A stretch of 64,000 bases of DNA from Escherichia coli (lineage in GTDB: Bacteria > Pseudomonadota > Gammaproteobacteria > Enterobacterales > Enterobacteriaceae), in assembly GCF_001677475.2 (NCBI RefSeq), contig NZ_CP012498.1; one strand, written 5' to 3'. The first letter of the stretch is position 1; each line of letters opens with the position of its first letter. Shown here one piece after another: positions 36,001-39,000 of this stretch. Made by a program: the position numbers.

Positions 36001-39000
36001 AGAGTACCTGGCGAACTCATGGAGAAACTGACATCAGGACAGCGCGCCGCCACCCGCATGATACTGGAAACCACCGACCGTTTCACGGTGGTGCAGGGCT
36101 ATGCCGGTGTGGGTAAGACCACACAGTTCCGGGCGGTGATGTCAGCCGTGAACATGCTGCCGGAGAGTGAGCGTCCCCGTGTTGTGGGGCTGGGGCCCAC
36201 GCACCGTGCGGTCGGGGAGATGCGCAGTGCCGGCGTGGATGCACAGACACTGGCGTCCTTTCTGCATGACACGCAGCTGCAGCAGCGCAGCGGAGAAACG
36301 CCGGATTTCAGCAACACGCTGTTCCTGCTCGATGAGAGCTCTATGGTGGGCAATACCGACATGGCACGGGCATACGCCCTGATTGCGGCCGGTGGTGGTC
36401 GTGCTGTGGCCAGCGGTGACACGGACCAGCTGCAGGCCATCGCGCCCGGTCAGCCTTTCCGTCTCCAGCAGACGCGCAGTGCTGCCGATGTGGCCATCAT
36501 GAAGGAGATTGTGCGTCAGACGCCGGAACTGCGGGAGGCGGTATACAGCCTGATTAACCGGGATGTGGAAAGAGCATTGTCCGGGCTTGAGAGTGTGAAA
36601 CCGTCTCAGGTGCCACGTCAGGAGGGCGCCTGGGCACCGGAGCACTCCGTGACGGAGTTCAGTCACAGCCAGGAAGCGAAACTGGCAGAAGCGCAGCAGA
36701 AGGCGATGCTGAAAGGCGAGGCTTTTCCGGATGTCCCCATGACACTGTATGAAGCCATTGTCCGTGACTATACCGGCAGGACACCGGAAGCACGGGAGCA
36801 GACGCTGATTGTCACGCACCTGAATGAAGACCGGCGCGTGCTGAACAGCATGATTCATGATGCACGGGAAAAGGCCGGTGAGCTGGGAAAAGAGCAGGTC
36901 ATGGTGCCTGTCCTGAATACAGCGAATATACGCGACGGGGAACTGCGTCGTCTCTCCACCTGGGAGAATAACCCGGATGCCATTGTCCTGGTGGATAATG
37001 TGTATCACCGGATTGCCGGTATCAGCAGGGATGACGGGCTGATAACCCTGCAGGATACGGACGGTAACTCACGGCTGATTTCGCCCCGGGAGGCGGTGGC
37101 TGAAGGTGTCACACTGTACACCCCGGACAAAATCCGGGTGGGGACCGGTGACCGGATGCGCTTCACGAAGAGTGACCGGGAGCGCGGTTATGTGGCCAAC
37201 AGCGTCTGGACGGTGATGGCGGTTTCCGGTGACAGTGTCACGCTGTCGGACGGACAGCAGACGCGGGTGATTCGCCCCGGTCAGGAGCGGGCAGAGCAAC
37301 ATATTGACCTGGCCTATGCCATCACCGCCCACGGTGCGCAGGGGGCAAGTGAAACCTTTGCCATCGCGCTTGAAGGCACGGAAGGTAACCGGAAACTGAT
37401 GGCAGGCTTTGAGTCAGCCTACGTGGCCCTGTCGCGTATGAAGCAGCATGTACAGGTGTACACCGATAACCGTCAGGGCTGGACGGATGCCATTAACAAT
37501 GCCGTACAGAAAGGAACAGCCCACGATGTGTTTGAACCGAAACCGGACCGGGAGGTCATGAATGCAGAGCGGCTGTTCAGTACGGCGCGGGAGCTGCGGG
37601 ATGTGGCGGCAGGCCGTGCCGTTCTTCGTCAGGCGGGGCTGGCCGGGGGAGACAGTCCTGCACGGTTTATTGCACCGGGGCGCAAATATCCGCAGCCGTA
37701 TGTGGCACTGCCGGCTTTTGACCGTAACGGCAGGTCAGCTGGTATCTGGCTGAACCCGCTGACCACGGATGACGGAAACGGGCTGCGGGGATTCAGTGGT
37801 GAAGGCCGGGTGAAGGGCAGTGAAGATGCACAGTTTGTGGCCCTGCAGGGCAGCCGTAACGGAGAGAGTCTGCTGGCTGATAACATGCAGGATGGCGTCC
37901 GGATTGCCCGTGATAACCCCGACAGCGGTGTGGTGGTGAGAATCGCCGGTGAAGGCCGTCCGTGGAATCCCGGTGCCATCACCGGTGGCCGCGTGTGGGG
38001 GGATATCCCGGACAACAGCGTCCAGCCGGGAGCCGGAAATGGCGAACCGGTCACGGCAGAGGTACTGGCACAGCGGCAGGCTGAAGAGGCTATCCGCCGT
38101 GAAACGGAACGCCGTGCGGATGAGATTGTCAGAAAAATGGCAGAGGAAAAACCTGACCAGCCGGATGACAAAACAGAGCAGGCTGTCAGGGAGATTGCCG
38201 GGCAGGAGCGTGACCGGGCTGTCACTTCTGAACGGGAAGCCGTACTGCCGGAGAGTGTGCTGCGTGAGCCTCAACGGGTGCAGGACGCTGTCCGGGAGGT
38301 TGCCCGGGAAAATCTGTTGCAGGAGCGACTGCAGCAGATGGAGCGGGATATGGTCCGTGACCTGCAGAAAGAGAAAACCCTGGGTGGAGACTGATACTGT
38401 CGGCCCGGGCGTTTGTGTTAACCCCCTGAGGAGATTGCTGATATGGAAACCTTCCCTGACCCTGATGACATCCGGGGAAAAACAGCAGACATACTGAGCG
38501 CGTTATCCGTGGACAATATTCCTGAGCGTTATGGCTTTACGGCAGAGCTGGCATCGCTGAAAAACTGCATAAGCGAGGATGAATATTGCAACATGGAGTT
38601 TTACGAGACGGGGTGCGCCTTCCTGAAAGCTTTACTGAGAACCCGGCTGAGACTTAAAAAAACCGACCCCGCGCATCCGTTGCTGCCCGTGATATCTTCG
38701 TCGGTGGAAGAGCTCAGAACACAGCTTAAGGAAAATGAAGCTTACGTCCGCCTTTTAATCGGGATGGATGCGGTTTCCCGACGGGTTGGTGTGATGAATG
38801 TGTCTCTTCTCGGCCTTACCGCAGTGATGATACTGATTATCGGGGGAACTGTGCTGGCACATGTATGGTTTTAAAGCTTCGTAAGGCGTGATGATATGGA
38901 GAATATGAATAACACGGTCGGTGTTGTGACCATGAAACCCCGGGAATGGCTGGAGCGCCTTCTTGTCTGGTCCCCCGGACAGCGGGATATCATCAAAACT

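Follow-up and report, generated by a model that had tools for sequence, protein, structure and literature searches.

A conserved small gene between traI and traX in a minority of F-like plasmids encodes a predicted tail-anchored membrane protein

The window analyzed here, a 64,000-nucleotide stretch of the Escherichia coli contig NZ_CP012498.1, includes an F-like transfer operon that ends with finO (Table 1). The end of traI and the start of traX are separated by 501 bp, most of them taken up by a 143-aa open reading frame (ORF) with spacers of 48 bp on its 5′ side and 21 bp on its 3′ side, so that the ORF and the roughly 500-bp gap described in an initial sequence-only reading of the window are both confirmed. 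Another ORF across the same site, on the minus strand (38755..39138), overlaps two conserved plus-strand genes and was treated as spurious. Elsewhere in the operon, a VapC (PIN)/VapB toxin–antitoxin pair lies antisense between traD and traI (32417..33045, minus strand), and the same vapBC pair is found at the same position in the current RefSeq annotation of plasmid F. On the 3′ side of finO, a staphylococcal-nuclease-family gene (40765..41238) is followed by an IncFII RepA gene (43725..44594), by an IS3-family transposase pair (HTH_Tnp_1 and rve, 47757..48945), and by another rve-type transposase on the minus strand (50135..50878). The plasmid also carries a type VI secretion gene cluster (53717..63762), with Pfam matches to TssC/VipB (54196..55674), TssF (56616..58418), and VgrG (59354..61336) and additional ORFs of the same orientation nearby. 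The closest plasmids are of the IncFIA/FIB type, 168–242 kb in size, and come from cattle, food, and cryptic Escherichia.

Table 1 Coordinates of the traI–traX junction and of the transfer genes around it, in window positions.
Feature	Coordinates	Strand	Remarks
ORFs at the traS and traT positions	27267..27770 and 27703..28533		identity inferred from gene order
traD	30255..32408		window's F-like transfer operon
traI (relaxase/helicase)	33124..38394	+	upstream neighbor; F-equivalent start MMSIAQ at 33124, ORF listed from 33058
Segment without F homology	38398..38961	+	564 bp, against 91 bp in F; spacer, ORF, spacer, and first ~22 codons of traX
Shine-Dalgarno GAGGAG	38430..38435	+	7 nt before the ATG of the 143-aa ORF
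143-aa ORF	38443..38874	+	ATG start; between traI and traX
Predicted cytoplasmic helical bundle	38443..38790	+	codons 1–116; AlphaFold2
Predicted single C-terminal transmembrane helix	38791..38871	+	codons 117–143; continuous with the last bundle helix
traX (pilin acetylase)	38896..39633	+	downstream neighbor
finO	39688..40248	+	end of transfer operon

Plasmid F (NC_002483) has a gap of 19 bp between the end of traI (97943) and the start of traX (97963), in line with the close spacing of the two genes in F given in the initial reading. BLASTN alignment of the window to F showed 92% identity up to position 38397, with homology resuming at 38962. The variable segment thus includes the first ~22 codons of traX (38896..38961, MENMNNTVGVVTMKPREWLER) in addition to the ORF, and these codons specify an N-terminus unrelated to that of F TraX. 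The sequence-only reading was therefore right to call the ORF extra relative to F, but the difference reaches further than the ORF. The variant TraX N-terminus, MENMNNTVGVV... with minor variation, is common to all five ORF-carrying E. coli-type plasmids for which traX was read. Both the ORF and the 564-bp segment have a GC content of ~50–51%, against 58–60% in traI and traX, a contrast that suggests that the extra segment is a foreign insertion. The sole candidate for an insertion scar is a 9-nt direct repeat, TGATATGGA, at 38439..38447 and 38892..38900 (spacing 453 bp), with one copy covering the start codon of the ORF and the other that of traX. It could be a microhomology through which the ORF was acquired or lost, or could have arisen by chance. 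The best 40 matches to a synthetic junction from which the ORF had been deleted included no empty site with the variant traX N-terminus and consisted only of ORF-bearing plasmids matched in two pieces, so that chance may be the explanation.

We compared the two junction types across the plasmids in PLSDB. The short F-type traI–traX junction was contiguous in 4655 plasmids (291-bp probe from F, contiguous match required), while the window-type junction with the ORF was found in 54 (DNA search with a 701-bp probe, coverage ≥80%). The ORF or a relative at any position was detected by tblastn with the protein in 84 plasmids, 75 of which are typed as conjugative; by genus, these comprise 56 from Escherichia, 19 from Klebsiella, 7 from Raoultella, and 2 from Salmonella. 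Among 5426 complete E. coli genomes, 64 carry the 564-bp module, always in one copy (63 on plasmids and one on a chromosome record). A genome-wide scan of 100,044 species-representative genomes, one per species and with a narrower alignment as query, added one further locus, on an Escherichia sp. contig that is degenerate and retains a remnant of traI. Overall, the ORF is carried by about 1% of F-like plasmids. Had most F-like plasmids carried the ORF at this site, the sequence-only reading would have been contradicted; a count of 54–84 plasmids against 4655 shows the opposite distribution, and 54 junctions against 4655 likewise do not amount to the fixed position in most F-like plasmids that marks the canonical F Tra/Trb set. 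Since ~99% of F-like plasmids, including those with F, R1, and R100-type junctions, transfer without the ORF, it is not needed for conjugation.

No sigma-70-like promoter or terminator was detected on the plus strand of the traI–traX gap, and an Rfam scan of 38300..39000 revealed no RNA family. With a strong ribosome-binding site but no promoter or terminator of its own, the ORF would share the long tra transcript with traI, traX, and finO and be translated from it, and we infer from this arrangement that it is co-transcribed with the tra genes; expression would then be expected in transfer-proficient plasmid-bearing cells. The start region, AGGAG plus TGCTGATATGGAAAC, is invariant in six homologues, two of which have an unrelated upstream spacer.

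Several lines of evidence bear on whether this ORF is a gene at all. We estimated dN/dS by the Nei–Gojobori method for five diverged E. coli copies (dS 0.09–0.36) and obtained values of 0.27–0.46 across all pairs, compared with mostly 0.18–0.28 for traX and mostly 0.05–0.16 for finO from the same plasmids. The ORF is thus under purifying selection, looser than that on traX and finO. A profile search of 1.84 billion representative proteins retrieved 25 relatives at E ≤ 1e-3; the full-length ones measure 129–148 aa and share 19–45% identity, and full-length copies are kept in at least four diverged lineages. Nearly all aligned members (19 of 20) have one C-terminal hydrophobic stretch followed by 0–15 residues, almost always without lysine or arginine. 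A chance open frame in a spacer, or a decaying gene, might account for an ORF that is absent from ~99% of F-like plasmids without known consequence and that also exists in shortened copies (the 80-aa ORF of locus L005 and the fragments P0052-P0060). Such a non-functional leftover would however not be expected to show dN/dS well below 1 in every pair, an invariant ribosome-binding site, and a confidently predicted fold, nor to persist at full length in at least four lineages with distant relatives of the same length and membrane anchor, and we consider this explanation highly improbable. The combination of conservation under purifying selection, an invariant Shine-Dalgarno sequence, and distant homologues of the same architecture argues for more than a chance ORF: this is a real, conserved, and selectively maintained gene.

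In three ETEC plasmids, the match is limited to the first 60 codons of the ORF. The one of these that was examined, L005 (NZ_CP023350, 4001..4243), has an annotated ORF of 80 aa with an IS30 transposase gene ~380 bp further downstream, suggesting that the gene is also lost by IS-associated events.

The product has 143 aa, a mass of 15.9 kDa, and a pI of 5.2. Its sole strongly hydrophobic stretch spans residues ~118–141, with a Kyte–Doolittle 19-residue maximum of 2.39 at residue 120, which bears out the C-terminal hydrophobic segment noticed at the outset. Charge is unevenly distributed ahead of this stretch, residues 1–57 being acidic (pI 4.05) and residues 58–116 basic (pI 10.2). The N-terminus (METFPDPDD) is acidic and lacks a signal peptide, while the hydrophobic helix is preceded by arginines and followed by 5 residues, none of them lysine or arginine. 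The protein, like 19 of 20 family members, thus shows the features that mark the tail-anchored class, namely no signal peptide, one hydrophobic helix confined to the final ~30 residues, and a short uncharged tail. Given the acidic N-terminus, the arginines before the helix, and the uncharged tail, the positive-inside rule leads us to expect a tail anchor with the preceding bundle in the cytoplasm. An AlphaFold2 model built on a 9-sequence alignment (mean pLDDT 87.4, pTM 0.70) is composed of helices at residues 7–21, 23–30, 33–42, 50–74, and 81–142. One residue, K62, is invariant across the family and three others (L61, R92, and N98) nearly so, all four being located on helices 4 and 5 of the model; the family alignment contains no catalytic-type pattern of Cys, His, Ser, or Asp. 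Taken together, the protein is predicted to be an inner-membrane helical bundle held by a C-terminal tail anchor, with its N-terminus inside.

In every record, the ORF and its relatives are annotated as “hypothetical protein”, “uncharacterized protein”, or “transmembrane protein”, and a literature search found no paper mentioning an ORF between traI and traX or its protein accessions. NCBIfam gave no match for the window protein and none of significance for 20 aligned family members, Pfam only sub-threshold noise for both, and PHROGs nothing significant or informative for either. PADLOC returned no match for the window protein; for the family, two Klebsiella-type relatives matched a 50-residue part of SduA (Shedu) at E = 0.003–0.017, which is not significant, and the protein thus could not be assigned to a known anti-phage defense family. 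The best hit of a sequence-profile search against the PDB (E = 0.011) was not meaningful. Fold searches returned generic helix bundles only, a fold that does not point to a partner, and a search against viral folds gave no informative match. Within the window, a family HMM run against all six-frame ORFs matched only its own ORF; there is thus no paralogue in the window, and the protein is not a paralogue of any Tra/Trb protein. Together with the NCBIfam and Pfam results, this means that membership in the canonical F Tra/Trb set by homology is not supported. The pairing of an anti-sigma domain match with an adjacent ECF sigma gene, which would mark a membrane-bound anti-sigma factor, was not found. 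Judged by these comparisons, the family has no described member, in keeping with the initial reading, which assigned no function to the ORF, and with the uninformative annotations.

Beyond the E. coli-type plasmids, in which the order is always traI–ORF–traX–finO, relatives occupy a variety of positions. In Klebsiella and Raoultella IncFII plasmids, a 36%-identical relative follows traX–finO and precedes DsbA, PIN, DUF2726, and PLD genes, and another F-like contig reads traI–traX–ProQ/FinO–ORF–...–repA. On a K. pneumoniae IncFII/IncR plasmid, the relative comes after mobF–DUF6012 and two genes upstream of a PLD gene, while in a different F-type system it sits between traF and a trbB-like gene. 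Two contigs (L015 and L016) have the relative at the end of a row of genes for a VirD4-type coupling protein, topoisomerase III, and H-NS, adjoining ArdC, a PLD nuclease, and a VirB11-type ATPase (L015 also contains an S26 peptidase gene), and the same ArdC and PLD neighbors recur on a third, short contig. Directly upstream of the relative on both L015 and L016 is the gene for a 248-aa protein without a Pfam match (L015, 7233..7979; L016, 7149..7895), which may be a local partner in the VirD4/topoisomerase III backbone. In Citrobacter-like plasmids, finally, SLT and HTH genes lie upstream of the relative, and a NikA-like/relaxase pair is close by. Each of the 10 distinct gene contexts with enough flanking DNA was conjugative-plasmid DNA, with the ORF or its relative co-oriented with the transfer genes, and the usual site is the distal end, in the vicinity of FinO, ArdC, a PLD nuclease, or genes for a relaxase or coupling protein. 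No neighbor gene is conserved across all contexts, which suggests that the protein works by itself or on a generic target.

Tra-distal regions near finO, hha, nuclease, or ArdC genes also collect cargo unrelated to transfer, and the ORF may be such cargo, riding in a permissive operon site while acting on the host or on phages (abortive infection, superinfection exclusion, membrane stress, or a toxin-like activity). Its GC content of 50%, below the 58–60% of the neighboring tra genes, would fit this scenario, as would the varied tra-distal cargo of F-like plasmids (SNase, Hha, DUF2726, Hok, PIN, DsbA), the partial SduA match of the two Klebsiella-type relatives, and a fairly fast evolution (dN/dS up to 0.46) of the kind common in conflict genes. 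However, the ORF has no promoter of its own, the consistent orientation with transfer genes in 10 of 10 contexts ties it to conjugative-plasmid DNA, the PADLOC matches are not significant and do not extend to the window protein, no informative PHROG or viral-fold match was obtained, and a predicted folded soluble domain of 115 residues is unlike Hok-type toxins. We therefore regard a role as unrelated cargo as somewhat unlikely.

A different possibility, which we rate as unlikely, is that the protein is an inter-plasmid competition factor, i.e., a tethered inhibitor of the coupling protein, or of another cytoplasm-facing part, of a rival or incoming system, similar in effect to fertility inhibition or exclusion. 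Known fertility-inhibition genes are also small, dispensable, patchy, and located beside transfer genes, and this family is patchy, spans both F-type and VirB/VirD4-type backbones, and often has relatives near PLD nuclease and ArdC genes; a cytoplasmic domain at the inner membrane would in addition be well placed to meet a coupling protein. Yet the protein has no homology to the DUF6710 protein of R46 (hhalign probability 0.1%, which also sets aside membership in the FipA/DUF6710 family) and no Pfam or NCBIfam match, hence none to TraS or Eex models, and the window plasmid already has ORFs where gene order would place traS and traT. Entry exclusion of the TraS/Eex type is further disfavored by a site after traI rather than traG and by a single C-terminal helix. 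A broader version of this idea, in which an undescribed family on F-type and VirB/VirD4-type backbones would dock on the coupling protein or relaxosome and either tune transfer of its own plasmid or block that of a rival, as a new class of fertility inhibition or exclusion, appears to us similarly improbable.

The reading that we favor, although tentatively and at rather less than an even chance, is that the protein is a dispensable accessory of the conjugative DNA-transfer machinery that works as a membrane-tethered protein-binding adaptor. Its ~115 N-terminal residues would form the cytoplasmic bundle, the last helix would run on into the C-terminal transmembrane anchor, and the bundle would hold or modulate a cytoplasmic partner at the membrane, candidates being the coupling protein, the relaxosome, or a host factor. 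It would be produced alongside the products of the relaxase and coupling-protein genes.

Overall, the ORF is an uncharacterized accessory gene. Small non-essential membrane proteins of this kind are familiar from F-type operons, but this one belongs to an undescribed family, and it does not represent a new system. In E. coli, resistance and virulence genes are carried mainly by F-like plasmids, whose transfer operons are generally regarded as fixed. The present results indicate that the traI–traX junction can hold an extra, selectively maintained gene for a predicted membrane protein, from a tiny family distributed over several backbone types. If the ORF modulates transfer or plasmid competition, it would be a new player in the control of conjugation, and if not, it is one more small accessory gene. 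Either way, its annotation as a conserved tail-anchored membrane protein is warranted.

Among known systems, F TraS and the Eex proteins of SXT/R391 (~143 aa) are small, divergent inner-membrane proteins of plasmids with a cytoplasmic part, encoded in transfer regions. The ORF product resembles them in being a small predicted inner-membrane protein with a cytoplasmic part encoded in a transfer region. However, TraS and Eex have a polytopic topology or an N-terminal anchor and are encoded beside traG, whereas the ORF product has one C-terminal helix and is encoded beside traI/traX or finO, and the two share no homology. The DUF6710 gene of the IncN plasmid R46, which we take to be FipA, lies beside PLD nuclease and relaxase genes; the target of FipA is the coupling protein of a rival plasmid. 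It is comparable to the ORF as a dispensable gene beside transfer or PLD genes of a conjugative plasmid, but its 208-aa product differs in length and shows no similarity. In architecture, a likeness exists to ElaB, YqjD, and YgaM (DUF883), which likewise combine a cytoplasmic helical N-terminal part with a single transmembrane helix at the extreme C-terminus. These proteins are chromosomal and stress- or ribosome-associated, however, whereas the ORF family was found only on conjugative plasmids and has no Pfam DUF883 match. The small Trb or “orf” proteins (TrbA, TrbE, TrbF, TrbJ, and TrbH) are likewise short, dispensable, patchy, co-oriented in the tra operon, and predicted to reside in the inner membrane (Fernandez-Lopez et al.). 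The ORF differs from these in having no sequence relationship to them and in occupying a traI–traX site that is empty in F, and, unlike the small Trb proteins, its family is also present on non-F-type conjugative backbones.
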